Shown in pieces: positions 28,483 to 51,475 of a DNA stretch of 64,000 nucleotides. Under the pieces are notes generated by a model. It saw only the letters and a list, made by a program, of their open reading frames with translations, ran no database searches and had not been told where the DNA came from. The position numbers and the translations under genes were made by a program. The stretch lies in the NCBI GenBank assembly GCA_019454185.1, contig CP075368.1, forward strand, positions 1,899,649-1,963,648, written 5' to 3'. The stretch comes from Phycisphaeraceae bacterium (lineage in GTDB: Bacteria > Planctomycetota > Phycisphaerae > Phycisphaerales > UBA1924). Each line of letters opens with the position of its first letter. The first letter of the stretch is position 1.

Positions 28483-29016
28483 TCATTTTGGCGCTCTGCC
28501 GCCCACGCGGAGTTCGAGCGGCTCTCGGGAAACGACTCTGGTTCCATCGGCGAGTGTGATCTCGCAAGAGAGGCGTGCGGCCTGGGATGGGATTCGGTCT
28601 GTGCCGACGGCGTTGAGGTTGAGTTCGAAGCCGTAGGCCGGGCCGGGCTGTGTGGGGAAGACGGCGCGACTGGTCTCGCGCGGCGCGAACGCCCAGACCC
28701 CGAGCGACTGTCCCTGTTCGCCGACCATACGGAACTGGAAGGTGGCGTCGACGGTCATGGGAAGGGCGAAGCGATTGGTATCGCCAAAGACATAGACGAT
28801 CACGCGGACGGTGTCCACGAAGCCGTTGAGATCTCGGTCCTCGAGCGGCTCGTTGGCGACCAAGACTCGCTCTGGCTTGAGGTCGGAGGGTTGGGTGGGG
28901 AACTGAGATTGGGTCTGCCTGCGTGGGCGCGAAGAATCCGATGTGGCGCAGCCGGTAGCGAGCCCGATCGAGAGCAGGGCAGCGAGAAGGATGGCGAGTC
29001 GGGCGACGGGGATCAT
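28483..29016 (-). CDS. small lipoprotein translationally coupled to the secretin (pilotin candidate)
   Basis: MIPVARLAILLAALLSIGLATGC lipobox. Its ATG overlaps the secretin stop (ATGA at 29013-29016). Confidence 0.7.
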   Translation of the reverse strand: MIPVARLAILLAALLSIGLATGCATSDSSRPRRQTQSQFPTQPSDLKPERVLVANEPLEDRDLNGFVDTVRVIVYVFGDTNRFALPMTVDATFQFRMVGEQGQSLGVWAFAPRETSRAVFPTQPGPAYGFELNLNAVGTDRIPSQAARLSCEITLADGTRVVSREPLELRVGGRAPK

Positions 29017-32000
29017 CGCGGGCGCTCCTCTTTGCGTCCGACGGTCCGGACGCGGTCGCCCTGAGCAGCCGAGGATGAGCCGGGAGCGGCGCCGGACGGG
29101 TTGCTCTCCCGCATTTCGAGCGGGGGCAGAGTGGTCGGAGGTGGGGAGCCATCGTGCATCTCGAGGGCGTCGCGGATCTGGGTGGGATTGGACATGCGTC
29201 CGATCTCGTGGCGTGTCCAGCGGCTCTGGAGATCGATGGAGCTTGGTGAATCGCCTGGCACGACCTTGGGCGTGAGGATGACGAGGAGTTCGGTCTTGAT
29301 GTTCTCGACCTGGGTCGAGCGGAAGGCGTTGCCGATGATGGGGATGTCTCCCAGCAGCGGGACCTTGGTGCGGCGATCTTCCTGGGTGTTCTGGATCAGG
29401 CCGCCTATGACGACCGTCTGTCCGTCCTTGACGGTGACGACGGTGTCGACCTTACGTGTGGTGATGATCGGGGCTTCGAAGTCCTCGGAGATCTGGGTGG
29501 TGCGCTGGCTGACGGAAGAGATCTCGGGGGCGATTTCGAGCCGCACGAACCCGTCGGCGCTGATGGATGGCGTGACGTTGAGGATGATTCCGACATCTCG
29601 ACGTTCGACGTCGGACCGTGTGTTGCCGTTGTCCAATCGTTCGACACCGGTGACGATGGCGATGTCTTCACCGACCTGGATGAGGGCCCGCTCGTTGTTA
29701 TTGACCGTGACCTGGGGTCTGCTCAGCACTTCGAGCTTGCCCTGGACTTCGAGCGCACGGATCAGGACGCTGAAGTCGTTGCTCGAAATGGAGAGGTTCG
29801 CAACGCCGAGAGCGGTCGCAACGCCCGCGCCCGCGCCGAGCGCGCCGAACTGCCACATGTTGCCGCCGAACGGCCCTGCGGTCGAGTCCATGCCCCACTG
29901 GCGTGAGGCATCGAGCGTGACCTCGGCGAGGAGGACCTGGATCATGACCTGGGGCGGAGCGGCGTCGAGTTCCTCGATGATGGACTGGACGATCTCGGCG
30001 TAGCGAGGCGAGGTCGAGACGACGAGCTTGTTGCTTTTGCCGTCGCCGACGACCGTGACTTCCTGCTCGAGCTGGCGTGTCAGCGAGCCGGTCTGAGACG
30101 GGCCGAGTGTGGAGCGGATCTTGGTTGATTCTTCCTGGAAGTATCTGGCGAGGGTGCGTTCGACCTCGTCGGCCTTTGCGTAGCGAAGTTTGTAGACGAG
30201 TTGGAGGCGCTCGGTTGCTTCGATCCCGTCGAGTTCATCGACGACGGAGCGGACCATCTCAAGATACTCGTCGGTTCCTGAGACGAGGAGCGTGTTGGTC
30301 CGGGCGTCGATCGTGATCGAGAGCTCCTTGCGAGTGTCGGGAATGGGTGTGAGCGTCGTGTTGTTGAACGCGGGCGCGGCGGGATCGCTCTCGCCCGGGG
30401 ATCTCAGATCGGTCTGCGTCGGGACGAGAACGAGACGATCGCCCTGCTGCTGGAGACTGAACAGATCACGGAGGACATCGGCCATGGCGCGGGCGTCGGC
30501 GTTCTTCAGACGGAACCACTCGACACGGCGTGAGCCGGCGGAGGTTGTGTCGAGATCGGCGACGATAGCGGCGATGACTTCCATCACGGCGGGCGGCGCG
30601 GCGACCATCAGCGAGTTGGTGCGCAGATCGGGCGTCATACGGACCTGGTCTCGGATCGCGCCGTCGACAGCGGCCTCCGTGGCCTCGCGGCCGGTGCGTC
30701 CTTCGATCTGGTCGGCGATCTGATCACGGAGGAAACGGATGCGTGTGGCCTGGGTTGCGCCGACGCCTCGGCCGCCGCCGAGCGTGCGGCCGGCGAGTAC
30801 GTTCTCGAGCAGGTTCACGACTTCGAGCGCGTTGGCGGTGCGGAGCTCGAGGCGTCTGACATCCTGAACGGCGGTGACCTCGGCCGACTCCATTCGCTCG
30901 ATGATTCCACGGATGGCGTTGACATCGGATTCAGTGCCGCTGACCACGAGGGCGTTCAGTTGAGCATTTGGAACGACGCTGACGGCGCGTTGGCCACGTC
31001 GGGCGATCTCTTTCTGGACGTAGAGTGCGTTGACGGTGTCGGCGACATCGGCGGCTCTCATCTGTCCGAGCGGGATGAGGGTTGTGCGTTCGGCGCCTGC
31101 GACGGCAGCGGCATCGGCCGTGAGGGAGACGATGAGGTCTTTCACCACGGCGAGGTTCTCGTCGCTGGAGGCGACGATCAGGAGTGAGTTTGCGGCGTCG
31201 GGCTCGATGGAGAACGCGTCCTGCGGCTGCTCGATGGATCCGGCGCGGCGAGCGGCTTCGAGGCGTTCACGCATCAGTCGCTGCACGCGGGGCGCGAGCG
31301 ATGCGACATCGACGCCGGGCACCGGGACGACGTGGAGCCCGACCGCTTCGTTGGTCTCCGACGTGTCGAGGGTCTTGAGGAGGGCTTCAAGGATCGAGAA
31401 GCTGCTCACGCTGGTCGAAGCGATGAGGGAGTTGGTGCGGATATCGGCGGTGACGACGAGGGCGTCTTCGGGGCGCATCGCGCCGGTCGCCTGGCGCTGG
31501 CGGAAGATCTCGGAGGCCATGCTCGCGACACGGGCCGCGTTGGCGTGGTTGAGCGGGAAGAAGCGGACCGAGTTTGCTGCGGCGGCCGGTTCGACGTCGA
31601 GCTGCGCGACGAGTTCGGTGACGATGCGGAGGTTGGAAGCGGAGCCGATCACAACGAGCGCGTTCATCGGGAGCGCGGGCTGGATCACGAGCCCGGTCAT
31701 GGGAGCGAAGAGGTCGCCCTGGACCGAGGCGCGCGGGTCGGCGGGGTCGCGGCCAGAGTCAACGACGCGGAGGCGGGCGATCTGACGCTGGATGCCGAGC
31801 GCCTCGGGTGTGCCGGCGAGGCCCTGGACGAGCGTCCGCCGAAGCAGATCGGCCATGGCGTTGGCATCCGCGTGCTTGAGCTGGAGGATGGTTGGCTCGA
31901 TCCAACTGGTGGCCTCGGTGCTGTCGAGATCTCGGATGAGGACTTCGACGAGCGCGACGGCCTCTTCGCGGCCGGCAACGACGAGTGTGTTGGTTCGATC

Positions 32001-35000
32001 ATCGACGGCGAGGGCGATCTCTCCGGCGAGTGCCCTGCCGGTTGCGGTGGTCGGGAGACCCTGTCTGGCCGTCCCGGGGAGCCGGCGCAGTGCCTCGCCC
32101 TGACGGAAGAGTGTGTCGACGACGGTGCGGGCTCGCACCGCCGAAGCGTTCTCGAGCGCGAACATGCGGATCACGACCGCGTCGCCGGTGGCGAGGGTGT
32201 CGAGCGTGTCGATCACAGCGCGGACCGCTTCGACGTTGCCGGGCGTGGAGGCAACCAGAATCGTGTTGGCTTCAGTGTCAGGGATGAGGCGGATCGGCTT
32301 GGAGAGATCGAGTTTGAGCGGGTCTTTGCCGACACCCTCTCGGATCACGCTGAGTCTTCTGACCTGCTCGGCGATGGCCCGGGCGGGCCCTGTCTGGCTC
32401 GCCTGTTCGGCGGGATTGAGCATGAGTCTCAGGGTATTGACGAGTTGGTTGGCGCCCGCGATGCGGAGACGCACGATGCCGACGGCCTGATCGGCTTCGA
32501 CGGGATCGGAATCGATCTGTCTGATGAGGCCGCTGACGATGCGGGCGTCGGCGGGACCGGCGACAACTGCGATCGCTTGGCGTGTGGTCAGGGCAACGGT
32601 TGTGACGGGCTCGGAGACGATGCCGGGGCGATCGGACGGCTGTGCGCCGGAGATGCCGAGCTGGTCGAGCGTGCGCTTGATATCAGCGGGAGACGTGTTG
32701 GTGAGATCGACGATCGAGACGACCTGGCCGAGCCCGGGAGTGATGCTCTCTCCGTCGGCGGTGCCGAGCGCGGGTGTGTCGAGTTCCTTGATGGTTGTCT
32801 GGATCTGCTCGAAGAGTCGCTGGCTTGAGGCGATGACGAGGGCGTTCGCGGTACGATCGATCTCGACGGCGAGTGTCTCACGATTCTGCTGCGCGACGGG
32901 CGTGAAGGTGGCGAGGATCGTCTGACGGAGGCGAGCCGCGGGAACGTGCTCGAGTTTGAGAACTCTTGTCGCGAGGCGTGTGACATCGGCCTGCCCCTGG
33001 AGCGCCTCGGCGAGGGCCTTGACCTGGGTGAACTGCGTGTCGTCGCAGCGGACGATGAGGGAGTTGCTGGCCTCGTCGCCGACGACGACCAGTGCCCTGG
33101 GATTGGCGTTTCTGCCTGCACCGGATGATGCGGCGAAGACTTCTCGGATCGAGTTGGCGACTGCGGTCGCGCTGCCGCCCCTGAGGGGGACGACACGTGC
33201 CTCCGGCAGGCGGAGGGAATCCGGCTCGTCGAGGCGTGCCACGATGCCACGGATGCGGTCCATGTAGCGTTTGCCGGCAAAGACGACGAGGGAGTTGGTC
33301 TGGATCTCCGGCGCGACGCTGGGGATGCCCTCTTCATCGACGAGCAGCGAAGGAGCAGCGGACTCTCCCGCGCGGGCGTTGGCCCCGCGATTGCGCGATT
33401 CTTCGACGCGGAGGCGTCGTGCTTCGAGTTGCTCCTGAACGATGGCGCGGAAGCCCTCGTTGATGGCGCGGGCGACACCTGTCGCATCGGCGAAGCGGAG
33501 CGGCATCACCTCCAACTGACGGGAGCGGTCGTAGTCCTCGGTATCGAGTTTCTTGAGGAGCGATCGGATGCCCTCCCACTGGGTCGGCTCGGCGCTGACG
33601 ACGAGGGAGTTGGAGGCGGGATCGGCGACGATCGTGACGTTGCGTGCACCTGGGCTTGTGGCCTCCGGGGCGGAGCGGCCGTAGAACATGCCGAGCGCCT
33701 TGGAGGCCTGCTCTGCATCGGCGAAATCGAGCTTGACGAACTCGGTCGTGCGTGTCGTTGAAGCGGGGACGTCGAGGGCCTTGATCATGGCCTCGATCTC
33801 GTCGATCTGATCGGCCGGTGCGGCGATGGAGATGGCGTTCTCGGTCGCGGAGTAGTCGAGGTTCACGGGTGTTTCGCCGGGAACCCGGGGGCGGTTTCGG
33901 AGCAGTTCGTTCATGGATGCCCAGACGCGATCGGCAACGGCGTGCTCGAGCGTTACCCTCTTGAACGAAGCGATGGTTCGGGCGGGCTGCTCGTCGAGCT
34001 TCTTGACCTGATCGATGACGTACTGGATTGCTTCGGGGGAGCCCGAGAGCACGATCGAGTTGCTGCGCTCGACCGGCGTGACGGTCACGCGGAGGGTCTG
34101 CGGGAGGGCGGCACGAAGCGCGTTCGCGACCTCGGTCGCGCGGGCGGACTCAAGCTTGACCGTTGCGAGCGTCGCCCCGCCATCGGTCGGCGGCGTGTCG
34201 AGTTGTCGGACGAGATCGGCGATCTGCGTCTGCAGGGTTGTGGGCGCGGAGACGATGAGGGTGCCGGTGCTCGGTTGGGGCGTGACGATCACCTGATCTT
34301 CAGCGCGTCCGCTTCGGGGGAACATGGAGCGGATGGTGGATGCGGCATCCTGTGCGGTTGCGTTGCGAACGGTGTAGGCCTCGATGGAGCGGTCGGCACC
34401 GAGTTCGGGCTGGTCGATCTGCGCGACGAGGTCACGCAAGAGCTTCATGCTTTCCACATCGCCGGAGGCGATGATGACGTTCCCCTCGGGAGAACCGAGG
34501 ATTGAGAAGCTATCGGCGCGAAGCCCCTGGGCCTGGTTCCTGGCTGCGAAGAAACGCTGGAGACTGGCCGCGGCGCGCTCGGCCGAGGCGTGCTCGAGCC
34601 GGATCGTTTCGATCGTCGCGCCTGGACCGCCGACATCGAGGTCGGCGATGTACTTGGCGGCGGCTTCGACGCGATCATTCTTGCCGACGAGAACGACGGC
34701 CCGCCTCAGACGATCGATCTCGACCGTGACTCCGTCGGGATCAGGGCCACGCCACGGGCGCCAGCCGGGCGTCGCCATGGCACGCTCGATGACCGACTTG
34801 ATCGATGCCAGATCAGCGGATTGCACGGCGACCGCCTTGACCGCTACCGCGCCGGCTTCGCCCGGCGGAACATCGAGCAAACGCACGATGCCCTCGACGG
34901 TCTCGATGGTCTCCTGGCGGCCCATGATCACGATGGAGTTCGTGCGCTCGTTCGGTTCAAGGTAGAAACGATCTTTGTCATTCTGGCCCGCGCGGCCGGA

Positions 35001-38000
35001 GATTCGCTCCCACTGCATCTCGCCGGCGAGATTCTGCAGCGTCGGCCCGATGTCCATAGCCCGCGCGTTCTTGAGTTCGATGACCTTGAAGGCAAAGTCG
35101 CGGGATGCCGCGGGATTGTCCATGGAGGCGGCGAGTTCGAGCGCTTCTTTGATTTCGTCGGGGGTGCCGGTGGCAAGGAGCGAGCCGGAGCGATCGTCTC
35201 CGACAAACTGGGCACGGACCTGCGTCGCGCCGGGTGTGCCCTGGCGTCTGGCATCGAAGAGCCGCTGGAGGGTCGAGGCGATCTCGGTGGGCCTGGCGTT
35301 GTCGAGCGTCAAGCGCTGGATGGCGAGGCGATCGCCGCTGGATCCCTGATCGAGCAGGGAGACAAATCGCTCAACGATGGGCATGGCTTCAACCGGGCCG
35401 GCCACGATCAGCGATGCGCCACCCGGGCTTGCGACGACACGGATTGCGCCGGGCTCGATGGTTGCGAGCGTGTCGGTACCCGGCGTGTCTGCGCCGGGAA
35501 GGGACCATTGCATGGCTCGAACGCGTCTGGCCTGGATGCCGCGGGGCGCGGCGCTGACGAGGTCGTTGACTGCCTGAACGGCCTGAGCGGCGGTCATGGA
35601 TTGGAGGGGGAGGACGCGGAGGGTCATCGTCGGCCCACCTCGTTGGTGGATCATGGAACCGATGAGTTCGCCGACGACCGCGAAGTCTGTGTCATTCGAC
35701 CAGACGATGAGGGCCCCGCCGCTCGGATCGGGAGCGACAGACACCGAGCCGGAGAAGCCGCTGGGATTCTCGATGCCGGATCGCCCGATGCGAGCGATGG
35801 TCTGGTTGACGATCGCGGCGACCGAGTTGGCATCGATCGCATCGGGGAGTGTGATGATGCGGACCTTGCCGGGCTCTGAGGGCAGACTGCGTTCGAGCTG
35901 GGCGGCGAGCGCGGCGACACGGTCGGTCAGTCGAGGGGGACCGACGACGATTAGAGAGTTTGTTGCGGGATCGACGCCGATGGTGAGGCCGCCGGTGGAC
36001 TCTTCGGGTTCGTTCGAGACCGAGGGCTGGCCGAGTGCGGCGATGGCCAGCGCGCGGGCGAGGAAGGGCATGGTTTGAAGATCAGGAGGGACGTCGTGAC
36101 GGGGTGCTGCGTTGCTTGAGGGCTTTGTGGCCGGCATGTCGGGCGTTTCGCGGCCAGCGGCACCGGATCTCTTCAGGAGCTCTTCGGAGGAGATGACTTC
36201 GACGGTGAGGCCGCCTCGGTCTTCGAGCAGGCGCTTCAGGGTCTCGGCCATGAGCGCGGCATCGGCTCTTGATCGATCGACCGGGATCATCCGGACCTGT
36301 CGGCTTGAGGCGAGCGCGGCCTGGTCGAGTTGCTTCACAAGGGACTCGATCAACTTCATCTGATCGGGCGTCGCCCTGACGATGAGGGAGTTGCTCTGGC
36401 GGTCGACGCGAAGGGTCGGCGCGGGCCCCTGATCGTTCTGCTCGCCGATGACTTCGCCGATGCTGACGGCAAGCTCGGCGGCGTCCGCACCGTGGAGCGT
36501 GATGACGCGCACGACGCTCGACGTGGAGTCGGTTTCGGGCTTTACGTCGAGTTCGGTGATCATCTGCTCGGCGAGGGTCAGGGTGGCGAGAGGGCCGCTG
36601 ACGACGACCGCGTTGAGGCGTTTCTCTGCGGCGACGCGGATCTCGGCTTCGATCTTGCCGCCACTCTGGAGCAGGGCCTGGCCGCGCTGCCATTCGGGGA
36701 GCATTCTGAGGAGGGATTCCTTCCTCAGAACCTGCTCGACGAGGGGTGCGACCTGTTCTGCGCGGGCATTCTTCAGGAAGACGGTTCGAACGCCTGCGCC
36801 ATCGCCTCGACCGGCGGTGTCCATGGATTCGATGAGCTGGGCGGCACGAGCGAGCTGTGCGGCGCTGCCCGCGACGAGGATGGTGTTTCCGGAGGGTTCG
36901 CCGGAGACGGATGCGGGTTGTTCGCCGGGCATGAGTGTTCCGGCGAGTGCGGCGCGGACGGCGTCGGCGACGGTTTGTGCGGAACCCTCGGTGAGGCGGA
37001 AGACGCGGACATCGATCGGGCCTGTCTGTGCGGGACGATCGAAGGCCGAGATGAGTTCATCGGCGATCGGCATGAGGAGACTGGGGCCGCTGAGCACGAG
37101 CCGGTTGAAGCGGGTCTCGGCCCGGACGCTGGGCATGGAGAGGGCGAGCCCGGCTCGCTCGGCGCGGAGGAGATCCTCCGGCCATCTCGAGCGATCGAGG
37201 AGCATGGGCTGGACCATCTGTGCGACCGAACTGGCGTCGGAGTGCTTGAGCTCGAGGATTCTGACCTCGCTCGCGGGCATCGCGATGGATTGCTCGTCGC
37301 GCTCTTTCAGAAGGCGCAATGCTTCTTCGACCTGTGTCTTTGTGCCGAGGGCGAGGATCGCTCCTGAGCGTGGCTCGATGGACAACTCGAGGGGTGAGCG
37401 TCCCTGTGGGAGCGTGGCGTTGACGATTCTGGCGACCGCGTAGGCCAGCGTGTTCGCATCGCCCCGTGTAGGCGAGTATGACGCGGCGGTGCGCTCCGGA
37501 TCGCTGGCGGGCTGGTCGAGCTTCTCGATGACAGAGCGCGCGAGTTCGAGCGTGCCCTGCGGCGCTGAGACGATGAGCGCGTTTGTTCTGGTTTCTGCCT
37601 GGACACGGATGGTCGGCTTCTTGAACAGATCGGGACGGTTCTGCGCGTAACGAAGTTGGAGGGTCAGGATCCGCGGGTCGGTTTCCTGTTGATCGACGAG
37701 CAACCTCTCCACTGTGGTGGCGATCTGGGCGGCATCCGCGTGCTTGAGGGCGAAGGTCTCAACGGCGGGCGTTTCCGCGCTTGTGGGACGCACATCGAGC
37801 GGCTCGATCAACTCTTCGACCGTGCGGATATCCATCTCGAGGCCGGCGAGAATGATCGAGTTTGCGCCGGGCGCGCCGGTGACGGTGACGCGGCCGCCGC
37901 TGGGGAACTGCATCGAGCCGACGGCCTGGCCCAAGGCGGCAACCGTGGCGTTCACCTCGGCGAAGGCGAGCGGAATGATTTTGACGACGCTGTTGCCCGC

Positions 38001-40292: not shown

Positions 40293-40347
40293 AGAACCCG
40301 CTCCTTCCGTGTGAGCGGTCGATTGTCCGACCACCCGCACAGTCTAC

Positions 40348-41325
40348 CTATTCCTTCCTGATCCGGTCTGCCAGTGTCGCGCCTGTCCGAACTGTCCACA
40401 TCGTGCCTTCGAGCTCGAAGACGGCCTCTTCGCCAGCCCCCGAAACGAGCGTAGCGCCGAGCACGGCGGCACCCGGTGCGAGCACTCGCCGCTCGCCATC
40501 CCTCATGTTGAGCATGAGGGCCTCGACGCCGCGCCGTCCGGAGATGACCCCTGTCAGTTTCCATTCCGCGAAGGGCGGGGCTGGTTCCGGTGGTTTGGGG
40601 GGGGCCGCCGCGACGGCTCGGTTGGGTGTTCTGGGGGGAGGCGTCGGCACTTTGAAGACGTTCTTCGCTGTGATCAAGGCGATTGCCTGCACGCCTGACT
40701 CGCCCGGAGCGATGATGGAGGGATCGTTCGGGTCGTCCGTCGAGAGATCGGGCATCCAGATGGTCGCGACGTCGAGTTTCAGTTCGAACCTCTCTCGTTC
40801 GCGTCCGACGGGACGGATGTTGAGGGTGTCGATTCGATGGATCCACGGCTGGCAGGCATACGTCGCGAGCGCTTGCAGGACCTGCGGCAGTGTGCCCGTA
40901 CCTTTCACCTGAGCGCGAACCACAGAGAAGTTTGGAGACTTCTTGATGCGATCCTGCATCAGACGTTCCATGTTTCTGGCAACGGCGGCGGGGTTTCGCT
41001 CGTCTTTCGGGGGTGTGCTGCTGACGACGACATCGGTCAGGCCTGCATCCTGCCCCACCCGACTCAACCCCGTGCGCAGTCGATGATCGACACGATCGAA
41101 CTGTTTGCCGAGGGTTGTGGAGGCCATCGCGGCGAGGCGGTCGCGTACTGCTTGCTGGCGCTGGAGTTCTTTCTCGTAGGCAACCTGGGCGCGCCGCAGG
41201 TCGGCTGTCTCTTTGAGCAAGGCATCGCGTTCGTTCGCGTACATCGCGCGGTATCCGTACCAGGATGCGCCGGCGAACATGATCGCGGCAAGCACGAGTA
41301 GCGTTGGCTTGAGGAAGCGTCTCAT
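40348..41325 (-). CDS. T2SS assembly protein, GspM/PilO-like N-part fused to a GspC-HR/PilP-like C-terminal domain
   Basis: N-terminal TM helix, coiled coil, alpha/beta domain, Pro-rich linker, then KLTGVISGRRGVEALMLNMRDGERRVLAPGAAVLGATLVSG... Assignment by architecture and position. Confidence 0.5.
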   Translation of the reverse strand: MRRFLKPTLLVLAAIMFAGASWYGYRAMYANERDALLKETADLRRAQVAYEKELQRQQAVRDRLAAMASTTLGKQFDRVDHRLRTGLSRVGQDAGLTDVVVSSTPPKDERNPAAVARNMERLMQDRIKKSPNFSVVRAQVKGTGTLPQVLQALATYACQPWIHRIDTLNIRPVGRERERFELKLDVATIWMPDLSTDDPNDPSIIAPGESGVQAIALITAKNVFKVPTPPPRTPNRAVAAAPPKPPEPAPPFAEWKLTGVISGRRGVEALMLNMRDGERRVLAPGAAVLGATLVSGAGEEAVFELEGTMWTVRTGATLADRIRKE

Positions 41326-42932: not shown

Positions 42933-44342
42933 TCATCCTTTCGCTGACCATCGGCCCCTGCGCTGTCCCGAGGAGTCTCCGCCTTGTTGGGGCGAAGGTG
43001 AAACCCCTCGGCTTGTGCCGTTGCGCGTCCCGCTTGGTCTGCTCACAGACCGAGCATCGTCGCCGGGTTGTGCTGCTTCGGCAAGCGACGCGCCGAGCGA
43101 AGATTCGGGTGGGGTGCTGGATTGTTCCTCGTCCGCAACGAGTGTCTGAGCGAGCAGCGTGTCGATGCCCTCGGACGCACCGTCGAAGGTGACGTCCCGA
43201 AGGTATGACACCCTCACTCGATCGGCGGAACAATCGATGATCGCATCCAACGCCGCACGGGAGAGCACGATCGGTTCATCGTTTGAGGACGATGCCCTCG
43301 TGATCTCACCGACGATTCTGACACGCCAGTGCAGCGTGCGCGTGGTGATCCACGGGAGTGCCCGTGCCATGTCGGAGGAAGAGACGAGCCGCGCATCCAG
43401 AGGCCACGTCGGGCTTCTCGTGCGATCCGCGCCCAAGCGGCGTGCCGCTTCATGGATCTCCTTTGCCCGGCCCTCGAATCCGGGGATGCACCCGAGTACG
43501 GCCTCCGGCGCGCGGGAGATATCAACGAGTCCCTCGCGGCCAGCACCCTGTTCGCCGAAGGCGAGTTCGTCCCAGAGTGCGGCCCACACTGAGGGTGAGA
43601 TACTGAGTCGATCGAGGGCCCGGGCCACGTCTTGAGCGGATGAGAGGTCCACATTCGCGCCGGTCAATCGCTCGACAGTCTCGGTGACCGCGTTGTCGGC
43701 GGCGAGCCGACGATCGAAGGACCCGGCTGCGGCGTCCCAGCGTGCTCGCTTCCGTCCGGAAGACGCGCGATCGCCCACGCCGATGCCGAGATCGGGATCG
43801 AGCGAGTACGCGGTCGCGAGCGATTCGAGCGAGACTCCTCCGATCGCGCCTGCCTCGTCGCGAGGATCGATGCCGACGAGGCGAAGGTCCTCGATGCTTG
43901 TCAGTCCGCCGCGGGTCGCGAGCGACCTGATCGATTGTGCTCGCTCATCGCCGAGGCCGGAGAGGCGGGCGAGCATGGGTGCCGTCGCCACATTGAGGTT
44001 GAGTTTCGCGGCCTCGCTCCTGGCAAGGGCGCTCGGCGGGGAGCCTCCGTCGGACCCAATCTGCTCTAACCTCACTCGGGCCGTGGTCGAGCCATCGGTG
44101 TAAATGGTCCATTCCTCGGTGAGTTCCGGGTCGCCTCCTTCGATGAGATCGTTGCGCTGGGTTTCAAGCTCTGCCATGACGCCGAGCACGCCTGACCAAG
44201 CGGCGGCCCTGGCTTCGCGCCTGAGCAGCGAGCCCCTTGCGCCTGACGCGGTGGCGTCTGATTGGTCCAGCGCGATCATGGCGGTGAGCGCGCCGAGCAC
44301 GATCACGAGCAGCACCGAGAGCAGCGCGATTGCCCGCTTCAT
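42933..44342 (-). CDS. gspK: GspK-like minor pseudopilin
   Basis: MKRAIALLSVLLVIVLGALTAMIAL N-terminus without Glu5, large body with a helix-hairpin-helix-like LNLNVATAPMLARLSGLG... Sits after the three small pseudopilin genes. Confidence 0.65.
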   Translation of the reverse strand: MKRAIALLSVLLVIVLGALTAMIALDQSDATASGARGSLLRREARAAAWSGVLGVMAELETQRNDLIEGGDPELTEEWTIYTDGSTTARVRLEQIGSDGGSPPSALARSEAAKLNLNVATAPMLARLSGLGDERAQSIRSLATRGGLTSIEDLRLVGIDPRDEAGAIGGVSLESLATAYSLDPDLGIGVGDRASSGRKRARWDAAAGSFDRRLAADNAVTETVERLTGANVDLSSAQDVARALDRLSISPSVWAALWDELAFGEQGAGREGLVDISRAPEAVLGCIPGFEGRAKEIHEAARRLGADRTRSPTWPLDARLVSSSDMARALPWITTRTLHWRVRIVGEITRASSSNDEPIVLSRAALDAIIDCSADRVRVSYLRDVTFDGASEGIDTLLAQTLVADEEQSSTPPESSLGASLAEAAQPGDDARSVSRPSGTRNGTSRGVSPSPQQGGDSSGQRRGRWSAKG

Positions 44343-44926
44343 GCGCCTTCACCTCCGCCATCGGGGATCCGGACGATTCTGCGCCAGAACTCTCCTCGGG
44401 ATGTGGTGACGCTGATCTCGATCGCGGTCGGCATTCTGCCTCGATCGGCGGCGTCGAACGTGTCGTGCCACGCGAAACCGTCCGCGTATCTGAATCGCAG
44501 CTCTCCAACACGTTCGCAGACGGTCGCTCGCATGCGTTCGCCCGAGACGAGCCATCGCTCGGCCTCAACCCTGGCCCCCTGTCCGTCGAAGTTGAATGAG
44601 GATCCCTGGATGTCACGCGGAGATCGTTCGCCGAAGCTGCCTCGCAGCCACACGCCTCGCGAGAGGATTCTGATCGATGTTTCGTCTCCCACAACGCCGG
44701 AGCCCTCGCGCGGATCGGCGGCGACCGCGGTCATGAGATCGGACTCGATCTGGTCCATCATCGCGAGGACTTCGCGAGCGGATGTTGAGATCGCGGTGAC
44801 TCTGGCTCTCTGGTCTCTCGCGCTCCACATGAGCGACATCACCGCGCCCATGAGCAGGAGCAGCAACGCACACGCGACGAGGACCTCGATCACCGTGAAG
44901 CAGCGTGCGGATCTGCGACGGCTCAC
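44339..44926 (-). CDS. minor pseudopilin (GspJ-like by size and order)
   Basis: Class III signal MSRRRSARC/FTVIEVLVA with Glu5 present and Cys at -1. Confidence 0.6.
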   Translation of the reverse strand: MSRRRSARCFTVIEVLVACALLLLLMGAVMSLMWSARDQRARVTAISTSAREVLAMMDQIESDLMTAVAADPREGSGVVGDETSIRILSRGVWLRGSFGERSPRDIQGSSFNFDGQGARVEAERWLVSGERMRATVCERVGELRFRYADGFAWHDTFDAADRGRMPTAIEISVTTSRGEFWRRIVRIPDGGGEGA

Positions 44927-45396
44927 GCGTCACCTCCCTGCCGATCGAGGGGAAGGGCGGCGGCCGGGGCGTTGCCGATGCGCACGATCTGTCTCGCGGT
45001 GTAAATGAGCCGCTCTTCGGTGCCGACCGAGCGCACCACGCCGATCGATACGAGCATGTGGCTACGGAACTGGGTCGGCTCGGTCTCGACGCGTATTCCC
45101 CAGCCGCTCCAGGGCCCGAGCTGCGGGTCGCTTACGCCGGCACCGGGCGGAGGTCCCATCCAGAGCGGAGAGGATTCTTCGATCGGACCGTCGATGGATT
45201 CGGGCTGAACGACGCCGGATTCGATCAGGGAGATCGCGGACCAGGCGAGATCCGCTGCACGAAGGCGTTCGGCGGTGAGCGTGGATCGGTCGAGGGCGTG
45301 ATCGAGAGCTCCGTGGATCGCCAGTCCGGCCATCGCGAAGAGCACGACGGCCAGAAGGAGCTCGAGAAGGATCGCGCCTCGTCTGTTCATCTCCAC
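44923..45396 (-). CDS. minor pseudopilin (GspI-like by size and order)
   Basis: MEMNRRG/AILLELLLAVVLFA, with Glu5 present. Confidence 0.6.
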   Translation of the reverse strand: MEMNRRGAILLELLLAVVLFAMAGLAIHGALDHALDRSTLTAERLRAADLAWSAISLIESGVVQPESIDGPIEESSPLWMGPPPGAGVSDPQLGPWSGWGIRVETEPTQFRSHMLVSIGVVRSVGTEERLIYTARQIVRIGNAPAAALPLDRQGGDA

Positions 45397-46070
45397 TTCG
45401 CAAACGGATCAAACTCGTCTTGCAAACCGCCCGCACGGGTGTCGAGCGTGTCGGTGCGGCGAGGATCGTCGGTTGTTGCGCCTGCGAGCGCGGCGACACC
45501 TGTCCAGGGATTCACTCTGACTTCGCTGGAGCGACCGTCGCGACCTCGCACGAGGATGGGACCGGAAACAACGGCGCTGCCATCTGGGAGAAAGACCGCG
45601 AGGGTGCGTTCGCGGGGTTCGGAGACTTCAGAGCGGGAATCGGATGCGGGCGCCCCCATGCCGCCGAGACTTCTCACCGGGTCTGCGGCGGGAGTGCGGC
45701 CCGCGATGGTGATGCCCTGGGGCAGGTTCAGCCGCTTGGTTGCGCGCGTGAAGGCGTGCTCCATGCCGGGATTGGCGCTTGCGGCTTGGGATGCCGTATC
45801 GGAGACGGTGCGGCTGTCTACGCCGGTGCGACCATCGTCACCGACGATTGCGATCACTGTCACGGGCAGACCGGATTCTCTGGCCGTGGCCTGGGCATCG
45901 CTCAGCGCGGACTGGATCCGAGCAGCGGCACCATCGACCTCGGCTCCGCGGACATGGCTGGTCATGGGCACGGCCACAAGAGCGGCAAGCATGCCGATAA
46001 TCGCGATCGCGATCAAGACCTCGACCATCGAGAAGCACTTGTTGCGTGAGAGCGTTCGGCTGGTGGCCAT
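45387..46070 (-). CDS. minor pseudopilin (GspH-like by size and order)
   Basis: ORF 45387..46364 trimmed to the ATG at 46070: MATSRTLSRNKC/FSMVEVLIAIAIIG, with Glu5 present and Cys at -1. Confidence 0.6.
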   Translation of the reverse strand: MATSRTLSRNKCFSMVEVLIAIAIIGMLAALVAVPMTSHVRGAEVDGAAARIQSALSDAQATARESGLPVTVIAIVGDDGRTGVDSRTVSDTASQAASANPGMEHAFTRATKRLNLPQGITIAGRTPAADPVRSLGGMGAPASDSRSEVSEPRERTLAVFLPDGSAVVSGPILVRGRDGRSSEVRVNPWTGVAALAGATTDDPRRTDTLDTRAGGLQDEFDPFAKWR

Positions 46071-46224: not shown

Positions 46225-46746
46225 TCAGCCACCGGGCGGGGGCGGGGGCAATCCCCTTCCGAATCCACCGTCTGCGTCGGCCTCTTCGGCGGCGAAGGCG
46301 TTGATGTCATCGTCCGTCCCGTCCTGCTTGTCCGGTCCGTATGACCACAAGTCGTATTCGCCATCGCGATTCTGGCTCTCGGCCCGATAACCCCACGGGG
46401 AACCCCAGGGGTCTGTGGGCACGGGAGATTCGAGGTACTTGGTCCACCGGGCCTGATCCTCTTCAGACTGGAGGAGTGACTTGTTCCAGAGAACAGCCAA
46501 CCCCTCGTCCTCGGACGGGAAGCGACCGAAGTCGACGTAGAACGCCTTCACACCACCCTTGATGAGACGGATCTGGGTCTCAGCGATGCCCTTCTTGGCC
46601 TTGGCACTCTGTCCGATCAGGGCGAAACCGACGAGGCCGGAGAGCGCGAGAATGATCGCGATCACGATCATCACTTCGATGATGGTGAACCCGCGTCGCG
46701 TGCGACGGCGCGACACCCTTGATCTGGACTCCACTTCCTGGGTCAT
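46225..46746 (-). CDS. gspG: type II secretion major pseudopilin GspG
   Basis: RRG/FTIIEVMIVIAIILALSGLV..., ...DPWGSPWGYR..., ...YDLWSYGPDKQDGTDDDI. Confidence 0.92.
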   Translation of the reverse strand: MTQEVESRSRVSRRRTRRGFTIIEVMIVIAIILALSGLVGFALIGQSAKAKKGIAETQIRLIKGGVKAFYVDFGRFPSEDEGLAVLWNKSLLQSEEDQARWTKYLESPVPTDPWGSPWGYRAESQNRDGEYDLWSYGPDKQDGTDDDINAFAAEEADADGGFGRGLPPPPPGG

Positions 46747-46962
46747 GGCTCAAAGATCCTTTCTGAGCGGTTCCTGCCGCGTATCTCAGTCGGCAGATTC
46801 GGCTGTCGGACCGGAGTCGGCCCGGCATCATCTCAACATCCTGAAGCGAAGGGAGTGTTCAGGAGCTAGTCCATACTAGCAAATCGCCCCTCGGCTGCAA
46901 AGAAGTTTATCCAAGTCGATGAGATCGCGGAGGATGCGCGTTTCGCTTCCTGTTCGTATGCC

Positions 46963-48639
46963 TCACACAACCAACGCTCCGGCAACCTCTTCCATCGTCG
47001 TCTGGCCTTGCCTGACCTTGGCGTATCCATCGTACTTGAGGAGTGAGAGTTCTCCCTCGGCCAACGCGGCGGCGGCCAACTCAGCGGCATTGACCCGCTT
47101 CATGATCATCTCGCGAGTTGCGCCGGTCAGATGGAGCATCTCATAGAGCCCGACCCGGCCCCTGAACCCAGTGCCTCGGCAGTTCCGACACCCAGCCCCG
47201 CAGCGGAGGTTTGCACCTTCTTCTTCGAAGTCTTTGGGCAGGGAGCCCGGTTCTGCTGTGAACGGCTGTGAACACTGTGCACAGACGCGCCGGACCAGTC
47301 GCTGGGCCATGACGCCCTCGACGCTCGATGCGATGAGGAACGGTTCAACCCCCATGTCGAGGAGTCGGGTTGCTGCACCGGCAGCGTCATTGGTGTGCAG
47401 CGTGCTGAAGACGAGGTGCCCCGTGAGCGAGGCCTGAACAGCGGTCTCGGCGGTTTCTTTGTCTCGAATCTCGCCGATCATGACGACGTCGGGATCATGG
47501 CGCAGGATGGAGCGAAGGCCGGAGGAGAAGTCGAGACCGACTTTGTGGTTGACCTGGATCTGGTTGACGCCCGGAACGTGGTACTCGACAGGGTCCTCGA
47601 CGGTGATCACCTTGACTTCGTCGGAAACGATGCGGTTGAGACTCGCGTAGAGCGTCGTGCTCTTGCCGCTGCCGGTCGGCCCCGTCACGAGAAGGATGCC
47701 GTGCGGGCGATTGATGAGCGTGTCCCAGCTCTTGAGGACGTTTTCGGGCATGCCGAGCTGATCGAGCCCCATGAGAACCGCTGTCTTGGAGAGCACGCGG
47801 AGCACGACACCCTCACCGGAGAGCATCGGGATCACGCTCATGCGGAGATCGAACTCGGAGGGGGCCTGTCCCGGCGGCTTGTGCCGGAAGGTGATGCGTC
47901 CGTCCTGGGGCCTGCGTTTCTCGGCGATATTGAGCGAGGCCATGATCTTGAGGCGAGAGACGATCGCCGCGCCGAACCGATGAATCGTGGGCGGGACGTT
48001 CGCACGCTGGAGCACGCCGTCGATTCGATAGCGGACGGCGAGCGATCCCTCGTAGGGCTCGATATGGACGTCGGTCGCTCTCTCGCTGATCGCCTCAGCG
48101 AGAAGGTCGTTGACGAGCTTGATGACCGACGCTTCCTGCGCCTGCTCGATCTCGTCCGCCTCGCCCTCGATGGATTCGAGACCGGGTCCTTGGCCCGCCA
48201 TCTCATGGAGCGTGTCGCCGCCGACGCCGTAGTGCGTCCGGATGAACTGCCGGAGCTCTTCTTCATCAGCGAGAACAAGCTCGATGGGGTTTCCGGTGAC
48301 AAGGCGGAGCTCGTCGAGCGCGGAAAGATCGAAGGGGTCACTCGTCGCGACGACGAGGACGCCATCCCGAAGCTCGATGGGAACAACCTGCTGCTTGAAG
48401 ACAACGCGGGCGGGTAGGAGTTGGATGACCTCCGGAGCGACGTCAGCAGCGCCGAGATCGACCACGGGCATGGCCAGTTGCTCGCCGATGATCTCGAGCA
48501 CCTCGCGCCGCCCCACCATTCCCATCCGGATCAGAGCACGGTCGAGGCGCTCGCCTGACGATCTGTGCTCGGCCGCGGCCTGTTCGAGCTGCTCGCGCGT
48601 GATCAGTCCACGTTCAACAAGTATGGTCGCCACACCCAT
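46963..48639 (-). CDS. gspE: type II secretion ATPase GspE (T2SSE_N/MshEN-like N-domain)
   Basis: Walker A GPTGSGKST, the Asp/His boxes, and the tetracysteine CAQC...CRNC. Confidence 0.95.
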   Translation of the reverse strand: MGVATILVERGLITREQLEQAAAEHRSSGERLDRALIRMGMVGRREVLEIIGEQLAMPVVDLGAADVAPEVIQLLPARVVFKQQVVPIELRDGVLVVATSDPFDLSALDELRLVTGNPIELVLADEEELRQFIRTHYGVGGDTLHEMAGQGPGLESIEGEADEIEQAQEASVIKLVNDLLAEAISERATDVHIEPYEGSLAVRYRIDGVLQRANVPPTIHRFGAAIVSRLKIMASLNIAEKRRPQDGRITFRHKPPGQAPSEFDLRMSVIPMLSGEGVVLRVLSKTAVLMGLDQLGMPENVLKSWDTLINRPHGILLVTGPTGSGKSTTLYASLNRIVSDEVKVITVEDPVEYHVPGVNQIQVNHKVGLDFSSGLRSILRHDPDVVMIGEIRDKETAETAVQASLTGHLVFSTLHTNDAAGAATRLLDMGVEPFLIASSVEGVMAQRLVRRVCAQCSQPFTAEPGSLPKDFEEEGANLRCGAGCRNCRGTGFRGRVGLYEMLHLTGATREMIMKRVNAAELAAAALAEGELSLLKYDGYAKVRQGQTTMEEVAGALVV

Positions 48640-48658
48640 GTCGGATGGTACGTCGGGA

Positions 48659-49486
48659 TCAGACCTGCTGATCGCTCACGGTCTTGGAATCCTGCGTAGG
48701 TCCGAATGTCGCGCTGGTTCGATCGGTCTCCCAGACTGTGATCTCCCTGAGTCTGGCGTCTCTTCCGAGACGAGCGATCTCGGCCGAAAGCAGCCGGAAA
48801 AAGACCATGGCGATGTTCTCGACTGTCGGATTGAGTCCGCCGTGGTCGGAGAACTCAGGCGTATCGAGGTTCAGGTGCTTGTGGTCGAACGGCTCGACAA
48901 GAACACGCTGGGTGATCTCTTCGAGTTCGGCTAGTGTGATGGCGGCTCGCGACGCATCCGTGCCGATTTCGACCCGCGGCTCGATCACGTAGTTATGCCC
49001 GTGTCCCGCCGGGTTGTTGCACTTGCCGAAAAACGCCCGGTTCTCGGCGTCCGAGAGCGCCGGCGAGTGGAGTCTGTGTGCGGCAGCAATCTCGAACTTC
49101 TGAGCGAGCACCACCCTGGTTCCCATAGTGACCTCTGAGTCGATAACGAGTGTCGGCGTGAGATGGAGTCGGACAGCGACAACTGGAACAGGCACCTGGT
49201 GCCGCAGCGACTGAAGAAGATCCGGCACGCACGCTGCGGGATCGGCGCGGCGGTCGATGTGAGCCGCGAGCGCGGGCACGGCGGTGCGTCGCACAGCGTC
49301 GTCGATCGCCTTGATGTTGATCAGGTACCCGGTGGCCGGGTCGGGGATGCCACTGCAGGAAACCGTGAGCTCGAAAGTCCTGCCCCAGGGGAGGAGCGAG
49401 GGAACGCCGCCGTATCCGTTTGTGCCGCGATCGCCGGCGGTGCTCGGATTGATCGCAAACCGAACTGTGCGTCTGAGCGTCACCAC
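48659..49486 (-). CDS. 6-pyruvoyl-tetrahydropterin/6-carboxytetrahydropterin synthase family protein, two-domain form
   Basis: The C-half has AAHRL...CNNPAGHGHNY...DHKHLN. The N-half is a PTPS-like repeat without the His triad. Start uncertain (GTG at 49486 chosen; the ORF extends to 49693). Confidence 0.7.
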   Translation of the reverse strand: MVTLRRTVRFAINPSTAGDRGTNGYGGVPSLLPWGRTFELTVSCSGIPDPATGYLINIKAIDDAVRRTAVPALAAHIDRRADPAACVPDLLQSLRHQVPVPVVAVRLHLTPTLVIDSEVTMGTRVVLAQKFEIAAAHRLHSPALSDAENRAFFGKCNNPAGHGHNYVIEPRVEIGTDASRAAITLAELEEITQRVLVEPFDHKHLNLDTPEFSDHGGLNPTVENIAMVFFRLLSAEIARLGRDARLREITVWETDRTSATFGPTQDSKTVSDQQV

Positions 49487-49605
49487 GCGATACGATAGGG
49501 AGTTGGTTTGATGCTGGTTCTGTGATGGAACGCGGCCTGCGGCCGCATCTGTGTGGCGCGTCGTTCCGAAACCGTTGGTCGAAGCACCCACACTGGAGTC
49601 ATGCG

Positions 49606-50205
49606 ATGGCAACCCGTTCTCGGCTCGCTCTCCTGCTCGCACCTCTTCTCGGGCTTCCTGTAGCCCTGGGGCTTGTCTCCCACCGATCGGCATCGCAGGA
49701 ACCGGCCGGCGAGGTATCGCCTTATGTGCTCTCCTACACCATGACGAGGATTGACGGCACTGCCGAACGCCTCGACGCGTACAAGGGGAAGGTCATTCTG
49801 CTTGTGAACGTGGCGAGCAAGTGCGGGCTGACGCCCCAATACGATGCGCTTCAGTCGCTCTACGAGTCGAAGAGGGAGAAGGGCTTTGTTGTGCTTGCGT
49901 TCCCGGCCAACAACTTCATGGGCCAGGAGCCGGGCACGAACGAGGAGATCGCCGCGTTCTGTGAGAGCAAGTACAACGTGACCTTCCCCATGTTCGAGAA
50001 GGTCTCTGTCAAGGGGAAGGATGCGTGTGACCTCTACAAGCAACTGGCGTCGCTCCCCAAGCCGCTCGGCGGCGAGCCCTCGTGGAACTTCACGAAGTTC
50101 CTGATCGATCGCGAGGGGAATGTGGTGCAGCGGTTTGAGCCACGCACGAAGCCGGACGCGTCAGAGCTTGTAAGCCGGATCGATGAGCTGCTCGCGAGCC
50201 CATGA
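49606..50205 (+). CDS. glutathione peroxidase family protein with signal peptide
   Basis: LVNVASKCGLTPQY, FPANNFMGQEPG, WNFTKFLI. Start set at the ATG at 49606 (MATRSRLALLLAPLLG). Confidence 0.9.
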   Translation: MATRSRLALLLAPLLGLPVALGLVSHRSASQEPAGEVSPYVLSYTMTRIDGTAERLDAYKGKVILLVNVASKCGLTPQYDALQSLYESKREKGFVVLAFPANNFMGQEPGTNEEIAAFCESKYNVTFPMFEKVSVKGKDACDLYKQLASLPKPLGGEPSWNFTKFLIDREGNVVQRFEPRTKPDASELVSRIDELLASP

Positions 50206-50287
50206 GCCCACAGATCAGGGGCGAGATCTCGCGTGGCTGCCCCCGCGATGTTCGTTCTCTTGATGCCTGCTATTCTGTTCGCTCGGG

Positions 50288-51475
50288 ATGGCGACTTACG
50301 CGTACACAGCCCTCACTGCCTCAGGCGACCGGGTCACCGGCCTGCTATCAGCAGCAACGGAGCAGGCCGTGCTCGCCGAGTTGGAATCCCGTCGCCTGAC
50401 CCCGGTGACGATCTCACCGGCGAAAGAACGGACGGCCAGGGGTCGGCGTGTCTCGGCACGGAAGCTAGGCGAGTCCTATGTGCAGATCGGCGATCTGCTC
50501 CATGCGGGCGTGCCCCTGCTCCGGTCGCTCAAGCTGATCGCTGCCCGACGGAGCCAGCCGAAGGTCGCGGATGTGTATCGCCACCTCGCTGAGACCGTGT
50601 CGGACGGAGGAGAGCTTGCAGAGGCGATGTCGCGGCGTCCTGAGGTCTTCCCACGCATCCACGTCGCGATGATCCGCGCTGGCGAGAAGGGTGGGTTTCT
50701 TGAGGGTGTGTTCAGCCGCCTCGGTGCGTTTGTGCTGGCGCAGGCGGAGCTCAGGGGTCGGATCGTCGGGTCGCTCATCTATCCCGCGCTGCTCGTGCTT
50801 TTCGGCGTGCTGATTCTCGGCGTGGTCTTTGGTGTGTTTGTCCCGATGTTCAAGCCGGTCTTTGAGCGGATGTCTCAGTTGCCGCTCTCCACACGGCTTG
50901 TGCTCGGGACGAGCGACCTGATCGCGGGGTTTGGTATCTCTATCGTCGGGGGCGCGGTCGCGACCGGGCTACTCGGATGGAGACTCTCGAAGCGTGCGGA
51001 CGTGAGACGCCGGGGCACGGAGTTCCTCACGTTCGCTCCCGTGTGCGGGCAACTGGTGAGGGCCCTCGCGGCGGCGAGATTCTGCCGCCTGCTGGGAACG
51101 ATGCTTGAGAACGGCGTGCCGATGCTCCAGGCGATGGCGATCAGCAAGGAAGCAGCGGGCAACGTGCTGATGGAAGAGGCGATCGATCGTGCGATCGAGG
51201 CCGTGCGAGCGGGCGAGCAGCTGGCTCCGCCCCTCGCTTCGAGCGGCCTCTTTGCCGATGACATCGTGGAGATGATCTCAGTTGGTGAATCGGCGAACAA
51301 CCTTGAGAAGGTGCTGCTCAGCGTCGCCGAGACGATCGAGAAACGGATCGACCGCCTGCTCGGGATCGTGGTGCGGCTGATCGAGCCCCTGATGCTCATG
51401 GCGATTGCGGGCGTGGTCGTCGTCGTGGCGATGGGGCTGCTGCTGCCGATGACGCAACTCGGCGGCGAAGGGTGA
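50288..51475 (+). CDS. gspF: type II secretion inner-membrane platform protein GspF
   Basis: MATYAYTALTASGDRVTGLL..., two T2SSF repeats and three TM segments. Confidence 0.93.
   Translation: MATYAYTALTASGDRVTGLLSAATEQAVLAELESRRLTPVTISPAKERTARGRRVSARKLGESYVQIGDLLHAGVPLLRSLKLIAARRSQPKVADVYRHLAETVSDGGELAEAMSRRPEVFPRIHVAMIRAGEKGGFLEGVFSRLGAFVLAQAELRGRIVGSLIYPALLVLFGVLILGVVFGVFVPMFKPVFERMSQLPLSTRLVLGTSDLIAGFGISIVGGAVATGLLGWRLSKRADVRRRGTEFLTFAPVCGQLVRALAAARFCRLLGTMLENGVPMLQAMAISKEAAGNVLMEEAIDRAIEAVRAGEQLAPPLASSGLFADDIVEMISVGESANNLEKVLLSVAETIEKRIDRLLGIVVRLIEPLMLMAIAGVVVVVAMGLLLPMTQLGGEG

Follow-up and report, generated by a model that had tools for sequence, protein, structure and literature searches.

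Relationship to described secretion and pilus systems

In type II secretion systems (T2SSs), GspC couples the inner-membrane platform with the secretin, as PilP does in type IVa pili; the stoichiometry and dynamics of this coupling piece in T2SSs are still debated. The type IVa pilus (Pseudomonas aeruginosa, Myxococcus xanthus, and Thermus thermophilus) uses four proteins for this purpose, PilM, PilN, PilO, and PilP, which act with the secretin PilQ. In the Planctomycetes-Verrucomicrobia-Chlamydiae (PVC) superphylum, the Akkermansia muciniphila cluster Amuc_1098 to Amuc_1102 encodes, in order, a secretin, a hypothetical protein, Amuc_1100, an FtsA/PilM-like protein, and a second hypothetical protein (PMC5332112). 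The locus analyzed here, a T2SS-like gene cluster with a giant secretin, lies in a 64,000-bp stretch of DNA (the window) at positions 1,899,649 to 1,963,648 of contig CP075368.1 (assembly GCA_019454185.1) from a Phycisphaeraceae bacterium (Planctomycetota). The source genome is a single contig of 3.80 Mb with 64% G+C, and the nearest named relatives of the window proteins were found in metagenome-assembled genomes (MAGs) of Phycisphaeraceae (Planctomycetota).

The locus is best explained, with a probability of about 0.8, as one type II secretion-like envelope machine of the type IV filament class, in which two bitopic proteins, a GspL equivalent and a fusion of GspM with the homology region (HR) of GspC, would link the platform to the secretin. 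Features shared with classical proteobacterial T2SSs included GspE, GspF, and GspG, the order G-H-I-J-K-L-M, a GspK-type minor pseudopilin, a secretin with N0, N, and pore domains, a bitopic L protein with an actin-like domain, and an HR-type beta domain available for N0. Whereas GspC is a separate protein in the classical systems, the HR-like domain was found here at the C terminus of the GspM-like protein, without a transmembrane helix, PDZ domain, or coiled coil of its own. The cytoplasmic domain of L comprised about 320 residues (the full size of PilM), compared to about 240 in classical T2SSs, and the secretin carried about 38 N domains, compared to 3 or 4. In addition, GspN was absent, gspF was inverted, and the prepilin peptidase gene lay 1.1 Mb away. 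Because gspC is mandatory for a T2SS in TXSScan, which leaves atypical systems generic (PMC6668835), this locus would be classed as generic.

[quoted passage not shown] However, two proteins (equivalent to M plus N and O plus P) were present rather than four, and separate pilM, pilN, pilO, and pilP genes upstream of pilQ were not found at the locus. PilP is a lipoprotein in the type IVa pilus, whereas the beta domain here is tethered to a PilO-like part; the locus also had a GspG-type major subunit and GspK and contained no PilT. The Akkermansia cluster belongs to the same superphylum and likewise places an FtsA/PilM-like protein alongside a secretin and hypothetical proteins (PMC5332112). Since structures of Amuc_1100 (6kny, 6lad, and 6laf) were among the top fold matches to the predicted M module, this cluster is likely a PVC relative of the L-M-secretin core. 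It differs in having a secretin of ordinary size, and Amuc_1100 has been described as a protein of the outer membrane associated with pili. No description of a fused GspM-GspC(HR) layout or of a giant-secretin system was found in the literature searched.

The putative GspM-GspC(HR) fusion

The M/C-like protein (325 amino acids [aa]) is encoded at window positions 40348 to 41325 on the minus strand. An AlphaFold model built with 20 sequences (mean predicted local distance difference test [pLDDT] score, 82) divided it into a transmembrane helix with a coiled coil (residues 5 to 69), a ferredoxin-like alpha/beta domain (residues 76 to 190), a short, conserved helix with an N-x-F motif (residues 209 to 224), a Pro-rich linker (residues 225 to 250) that was predicted to be disordered (pLDDT <50 at residues 233 to 245), and a six-stranded beta domain (residues 255 to 313). 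A first-pass annotation, made by a model from the sequence without database searches, had proposed a GspM/PilO-like part, a Pro-rich linker, and a beta domain resembling GspC-HR/PilP for this gene, and the predicted folds agreed with that proposal. In Foldseek searches, the M module matched PilO of P. aeruginosa (2rjz; TM-score on target, 0.65) and of M. xanthus (3jc8_O; 0.40). The matches of the small domain had TM-scores of 0.56 to 0.75, from the GspC HR domain in complex with GspD (3oss_C; 0.75, with a root mean square deviation of 2.1 Å) through the PulC HR domain (6hcg_e; 0.66) to P. aeruginosa PilP (2y4y; 0.56 to 0.58), with lower values for GspB (4wfw; 0.54) and M. xanthus PilP (3jc8_P; 0.32).

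Family profiles built from 20 and from 144 sequences returned only coiled-coil noise when compared to PDB sequences, and the M/C-like protein matched the NCBIfam GspM model only at an E value of 0.14. A stand-alone M protein in genome G097 approached the Pfam models T2SSM (1.3e-3) and T2SSM_b (5.5e-3), both below cutoff, and the fused protein of genome G303 reached 21.3 bits against T2SSM_b (2.5e-4; cutoff, 21.7 bits).

Separate profiles for the N-terminal and C-terminal modules, built from the 144 homologues, located the two modules together in a single frame in many Planctomycetota. In eight genomes (G001, G097, G395, G369, G298, G107, G124, and G143), the same modules were encoded by two adjacent genes. 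Because the modules exist as neighboring but distinct genes in these other Planctomycetota, the M/C-like gene is read as a true gspM-gspC(HR) gene fusion, as far as the modeled folds allow. In all eight split loci, the separate C-like gene was directly upstream of the secretin gene, as gspC and pilP are. The C-like sequences of G097 and G395, when read directly, showed an N-terminal hydrophobic anchor of their own; the N-x-F helix came directly after it, and the Pro-rich linker and beta domain followed.

Two further features of these proteins were observed. The helix at residues 209 to 224 (window positions 40654 to 40701) ends in N222-x-F224, with F224 invariant in the closer homologue set; this helix may be a contact with the L/M pair. 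An extra basic helix after the beta domain (for example, RREEIMRRLRERRLRE and AERLRMLREQRARE) was seen in the stand-alone C-like proteins of G097 and G395 and in the fused protein of G303 and was absent from the M/C-like protein of the window.

The first-pass annotation had seen no separate gspC or gspN, and this held for the entire genome. The Pfam models T2SSC and T2SSN had no match across the 3.8-Mb genome at an E value of ≤1, while controls responded; a separate GspC was not found in it, the HR-like domain was present only as the C terminus of the M-like protein, and there was no PDZ domain. A second copy of gspC or of the M/C-like gene elsewhere was considered, and a genome search found no paralogues of L or M/C, which occur in one copy each. 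The absence of gspN and gspO from the window had been listed as a feature of the locus, and both are indeed missing there, but that absence had been given too much weight: gspN is optional in many T2SSs, and gspO, which is often encoded away from the locus and shared, was present in trans (see below).

If the likeness of the beta domain to these proteins were a chance resemblance among small beta sandwiches, the M/C-like protein would be a GspM/PilO protein with an unrelated extension, in a machine without GspC function. The weak Foldseek E values of the small domain (0.02 to 0.6) and the empty T2SSC search would fit such a case; the Pfam PilP model also found nothing in the genome, but this result was uninformative, as the model matched none of the control genomes either. 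Against it, every PDB match confined to 63 to 100 columns, which is the extent of the beta domain, was to PilP, GspC-HR, PulC-HR, or GspB (probability, 0.87 to 1.0), and the same module formed a stand-alone, membrane-anchored gene in the gspC/pilP position next to the secretin gene in the eight other genomes. The secretin has also retained its N0 domain, and the beta-domain module is conserved over approximately 1,350 clusters. A beta domain without a secretin-docking role is thus considered very improbable.

The GspL equivalent

The L-like protein (534 aa; positions 41322 to 42926, minus strand) was modeled with 16 sequences (mean pLDDT, 77). The predicted layout consisted of an actin-like domain (residues 1 to 320), a transmembrane helix (approximately residues 338 to 358), a coiled coil to residue 399 (residues 329 to 399 form the transmembrane helix and a long helix), an alpha-beta-beta-alpha-beta-beta periplasmic domain (residues 403 to 499), and a disordered tail. 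Residues 1 to 320 matched PilM in Foldseek searches (5eou and 2ych; E values of 2e-19 to 1.5e-16; TM-score on target, 0.70 to 0.74; approximately 350 columns), and matches to the cytoplasmic domains of EpsL/GspL, which span 226 to 238 residues, were poorer (E values of 4e-9 to 3e-7; TM-score, 0.53 to 0.64); those to 1yf5 and 4pht had E values on the order of 1e-9 to 1e-8 and TM-scores of 0.58 to 0.64. The sequence itself matched Pfam PilM_2 (1.5e-5) and, as a profile compared to the PDB, PilM (1.3e-3); T2SSL and GspL_C had no match to it in the Pfam scan of the window proteins.

Based on the predicted fold, which has the GspL architecture, the L-like protein is a GspL equivalent in which the actin-like domain of PilM type is complete. 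The order of secondary-structure units in its periplasmic domain is that expected of PilN and of the GspL periplasmic domain, so that the domain appears PilN-like. The M-module profile also matched the transmembrane and periplasmic part of L in genome G330 (3.3e-6), as would be expected if L and M were PilN/PilO-type paralogues, and hhalign of L with M/C aligned only the transmembrane helix and coiled coil (probability, 10%). The first-pass reading of this gene as a single chain made up of a PilM-type domain, a transmembrane helix, and a PilN-like domain was therefore supported by the predicted fold and the PilM matches, but its description as noncanonical was not. PilM and PilN together are the accepted equivalent of GspL, so the single chain is the standard GspL plan (PMC4471445), and only the full PilM size of the cytoplasmic domain is unusual.

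Related fusions were seen elsewhere. The genome encodes at least one more PilM domain (PilM_2, 6.9e-37), at positions 2,588,343 to 2,590,415 (minus strand), in a 690-aa frame that continues into a hydrophobic segment and then approximately 290 residues; because this frame joins a PilM_2 domain to a hydrophobic segment, fusions of PilM to membrane parts appear to recur in the source genome. Among the representative proteins, P0120 (888 aa) contained L-like and M/C-like parts in one chain, with the M/C match at residues 547 to 878, and represents either one more fusion or an artifact of gene calling.

The giant secretin and candidate pilotin

The secretin gene (positions 29013 to 40340, minus strand) encodes 3,775 aa, or 3,759 aa from the likely start codon M17 at position 40292, which is preceded by a GGAAGGAG motif. 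From M17, the layout was a signal peptide, an N0 domain, approximately 38 N-type ring domains, and a C-terminal secretin pore domain. Pfam Secretin matched the pore domain (1.3e-49), Secretin_N matched 30 stretches, and an iterated self-search resolved 38 repeats between residues 185 and 3446. A profile of approximately the first 135 mature residues, built from this secretin and five relatives, matched the N0 domains of PilQ, GspD, and LspD in the PDB at 6.5e-7 to 3e-6 (best matches, PilQ N0 at 6.5e-7 and GspD N0-N1 at 7.8e-7). With this N0 domain, the usual GspC/PilP docking site is therefore present. One N-domain ring measures approximately 3 to 4 nm in GspD structures; at roughly that height, 38 stacked rings would span approximately 100 nm, which, speculatively, would fit an enlarged planctomycete periplasm.

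The ATG of the last gene (positions 28483 to 29016, minus strand) overlaps the secretin stop codon (ATGA). Its product is a 177-aa lipoprotein with the lipobox LATGC and is a candidate pilotin. It had no family match in the Pfam and NCBIfam scans, and it was kept downstream of the giant secretin in genomes G155 (4e-11) and G343 (6e-18). In two genomes of another family, G173 (L057, positions 2 to 2404) and G070 (L058, positions 3 to 2537), an ORF with a frame of approximately 800 aa that matched the secretin N0 region was found directly upstream of gspE; the real secretin is a separate gene that closes the operon.

Motor, pseudopilins, and the question of a pilus

The remaining components resembled T2SS proteins to various degrees. 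The GspE-type assembly ATPase (558 aa; positions 46963 to 48639, minus strand) matched Pfam T2SSE (3.5e-129) and scored 580 bits against the NCBIfam GspE model TIGR02533 (cutoff, 630 bits) and 552 bits against PilB. The GspF-type inner-membrane platform protein (395 aa; positions 50288 to 51475, plus strand) matched T2SSF in two stretches (6.2e-48) and GspF (1.6e-88) better than PilC (7e-62). For both proteins, Gsp models thus outscored Pil models, and both remained below the Gsp equivalog cutoffs. The N terminus of GspE (positions 48478 to 48639) matched NF053729, an MshE-related motif that binds cyclic di-GMP (c-di-GMP), at 47.2 bits (cutoff, 38 bits); this match above cutoff suggests that the motor may be under c-di-GMP control.

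The major pseudopilin GspG (173 aa; positions 46225 to 46746, minus strand) passed the TIGR01710 cutoff (102.6 bits; cutoff, 88.85 bits) and matched T2SSG (8.9e-23) and N_methyl (2e-6). The four putative minor pseudopilins follow on the same strand. The GspH-like protein (227 aa; positions 45387 to 46070) was assigned from its position after gspG, from N_methyl (23.5 bits, above cutoff), and from the gspH model TIGR01708 (2.4e-6, N terminus only). The GspI-like protein (positions 44923 to 45396; 157 aa, or 155 aa from the ATG at 45390) had only weak matches to N_methyl (0.06) and gspI (0.08) and was assigned from position and a pilin-type N terminus. The GspJ-like protein (195 aa; positions 44339 to 44926, with a GTG start) matched T2SSJ (1.3e-4), TIGR01711 (1.7e-3), and N_methyl (7e-4), none reaching cutoff. 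In the H-like and J-like proteins, Cys was found in place of Gly directly before the F-x-x-x-E motif (RNKC/FSMVE and SARC/FTVIE, respectively). The K-like protein (469 aa; positions 42933 to 44342) matched only the helix-hairpin-helix model HHH_3 (1.7e-5) and GspK (0.06). Since its syntenic orthologues in G330, G172, and G097 (phmmer E values of 4e-5 to 4e-28) matched T2SSK_1st above cutoff (3.5e-19 to 1.5e-14), with those of G172 and G097 also exceeding the T2SSK cutoff, it is identified by homology as a diverged GspK minor pseudopilin.

Several points weigh against the interpretation of the locus as a T2SS-like machine with a two-protein link. The M and C-HR assignments come from predicted folds, for which the two-domain Foldseek E values were weak (1.6e-3 to 0.6), albeit with probabilities of 0.96 to 1.0, and neither M/C module was recognized significantly in Pfam or PDB-sequence profile searches. 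The PilN-like nature proposed for the periplasmic domain of L derives from the order of its secondary-structure units and one weak cross-match. Protein secretion as the output of the machine is an assumption, since several features lean toward a pilus: the actin-like domain is of PilM type, the ATPase bears an MshEN motif, and the length of the channel goes far beyond what a short pseudopilus needs.

These last features raise the question of whether the locus encodes a true pilus or fiber system, an early-branching filament of the type IVa or MSH-like kind, with a long fiber that would leave the cell by way of the giant secretin tube. The better match of the L cytoplasmic domain to PilM than to GspL would then be expected, as would the PilO protein as best match of the M module and the MshE-type motif above cutoff on the ATPase; a tube of approximately 38 rings would moreover require a filament far longer than classical pseudopili, and the related Amuc_1098 to Amuc_1102 cluster, whose Amuc_1100 was among the fold matches, is linked to pili-like structures (PMC5332112). 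However, the major subunit scored above the GspG equivalog cutoff, a GspK-type minor pseudopilin was present, the order G-H-I-J-K-L-M is that of T2SSs, Gsp models outscored Pil models for E and F, and the locus contained no PilT-type retraction ATPase. A dedicated pilus is accordingly considered unlikely.

Gene order and packing

The minus-strand order reported in the first-pass annotation (gspE, gspG, H-like through M/C-like, secretin, and lipoprotein) was reproduced by the coordinates. Computed spacings likewise bore out the claim that the junctions from H to M/C are overlaps of 4 to 10 nucleotides (nt) or a 6-nt gap: H and I overlap by 10 nt (or by 4 nt if I begins at the ATG at 45390), I and J by 4 nt, J and K by 4 nt, and L and M/C by 4 nt, and 6 nt separate K from L. 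M/C and the secretin are separated by 7 nt, and the secretin and lipoprotein genes overlap by 4 nt, so that all junctions from H to the lipoprotein are overlaps of 4 to 10 nt or gaps of 6 to 7 nt. Wider gaps were found only after E (216 nt, to G) and after G (154 nt, to H). Overlapping ATGA sites had been claimed at three positions; those at 44339 to 44342 and 41322 to 41325 were present, and the site at 44923 to 44926 reads GTGA because J starts with GTG. Judged from the sequence, the tight packing fits a single operon. Promoter and terminator scans gave no signal above the shuffled expectation.

Upstream of gspE, at a distance of 19 nt, is a PTPS-family gene (positions 48659 to 49486, minus strand), followed on the plus strand by gpx (positions 49522 to 50205) and, 82 nt downstream of gpx, by gspF. 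The divergent gspE and gspF starts are 1,648 nt apart, in line with the separation of about 1.6 kb noted earlier. E-F-G order was found in eight fetched loci (G172, G330, G395, G303, G117, G351, G190, and G173), and in the sister genus (G155 and G343) F immediately preceded G, with no E nearby. In the source locus, F and gpx are inverted relative to PTPS-E-G. Since relatives have E-F-G or F-G order, the divergent gspF is a family-level rearrangement and not a feature of the system.

Components encoded elsewhere in the genome

No prepilin peptidase gene was present in the window, as noted in the first pass, and the genome-wide gspO/pilD search found a single one 1.1 Mb away, at genome positions 815,558 to 817,123 (plus strand; A24_N_bact, 5.4e-31). 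An acidic, Pro-rich insert of approximately 130 residues separates the half with the first catalytic Asp from the GxGD half of this protein, and because of this insert Peptidase_A24 matched only the second half, at cutoff. The genome also encodes three more secretins, seven more GspE/PilB-like ATPases, five more GspF/PilC-like proteins, and PilT-like proteins, all outside the locus. The prepilin peptidase is presumably shared among the secretin/ATPase systems of this genome.

Distribution of the fusion and its relation to secretin size

An exhaustive profile search placed the M/C family in 1,348 representative clusters (50% identity) at an E value of ≤1e-3 and in 308 clusters at ≤1e-30. Nearly all of the best 150 clusters were 312 to 375 aa in length and matched end to end. 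None of the family members had a Pfam annotation, and the family is without a Pfam model. Matches were found in 81 of 401 Planctomycetota genomes; a database locus search with the single M/C protein returned three close Phycisphaeraceae/Planctomycetota MAGs and no others. The operon E-F-G-H-I-J-K-L-MC-D was conserved in five families of the source order as well as in distant families, with the complete order present in G351, a member of a distant family.

For 49 of the 81 matched genomes, every secretin domain was surveyed for its position and frame length, and the fetched loci were added to this survey. Giant secretins (3,474 to 5,073 aa) adjoined the fused form in all 11 loci in which they occurred and the separate form in none (G000, G343, G041, G189, G155, G068, G382, G117, G172, G269, and G351; families f1, f2, f3, f4, and f89). 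Loci with ordinary secretins were divided between six with the fused form (748 to 1,353 aa; G303, G211, G227, G190, G173, and G070; families f18, f85, and f9) and the eight split loci (713 to 1,050 aa). Two loci with the fused form, in G330 and G270, had no adjacent secretin; in G330, the genes that come after M/C are unrelated metabolic genes, and the secretin is not adjacent to the operon.

The first-pass annotation had suggested that the platform coevolved with the giant secretin, and the fusion could accordingly have arisen as a specific adaptation to that protein. The uniform fusion of all 11 giant-secretin loci, set against the 6:8 division among ordinary secretins, is what such an adaptation would leave. 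The Fisher test values for this association, 0.012 and 0.005, belong to an earlier count (five fused and six separate ordinary loci) and a broader count (10 and 11), not to the final 6:8, and they overstate the link, as the loci are phylogenetically nonindependent. The same fusion adjoined secretins of 748 to 1,353 aa in f18, f85, and f9 or no secretin at all, so it is not specific to giant secretins; the association with giant secretins stood, and exclusivity did not. Specific adaptation is thus regarded as improbable, and the GspM-GspC(HR) fusion is more widespread, and probably older, than giant secretins.

Proposed mechanism and implications

In the T2SS-like machine favored here, the roles of homologues (PMC4471445) suggest that L would anchor the ATPase at the membrane through its PilM-type domain, that the periplasmic parts of L and M would pair, and that the M/C beta domain, on its linker of approximately 30 residues, would dock on the N0 ring, where the secretin faces the inner membrane. 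The work of GspL, GspM, and GspC (or of PilM, PilN, PilO, and PilP) would in this way fall to two proteins, and the ratio of M to C would be set at 1:1. The pseudopilins would be matured in trans by the single, distant prepilin peptidase, and a stack of approximately 38 ring domains would let the channel bridge a very wide periplasm. The fusion would predate the giant secretin.

A more far-reaching proposal, to which we give low odds, is that, in this two-fusion-protein link of Planctomycetota, joining GspM covalently and at 1:1 with the domain that docks on N0 was a precondition for secretins of 35 to 50 rings, forming a conduit of perhaps 100 nm or longer across the enlarged periplasm, and that the apparatus may match a surface fiber or pore structure of these cells that has no assigned genes.

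The system is a variant of a known T2SS-like machine, and its fused layout is common in Planctomycetota; the platform is modestly surprising, and the giant secretin is the striking part. A natural fusion of GspM and GspC-HR would fix the stoichiometry of the two modules at 1:1 and offer a simpler, two-protein platform for structural work. With a family of approximately 1,350 clusters lacking a Pfam model, tools that demand a gspC match would not call these planctomycete systems T2SSs. The presence of the fused form in all 11 giant-secretin loci would provide a handle on how a periplasmic tube of approximately 38 rings is anchored at the inner membrane.

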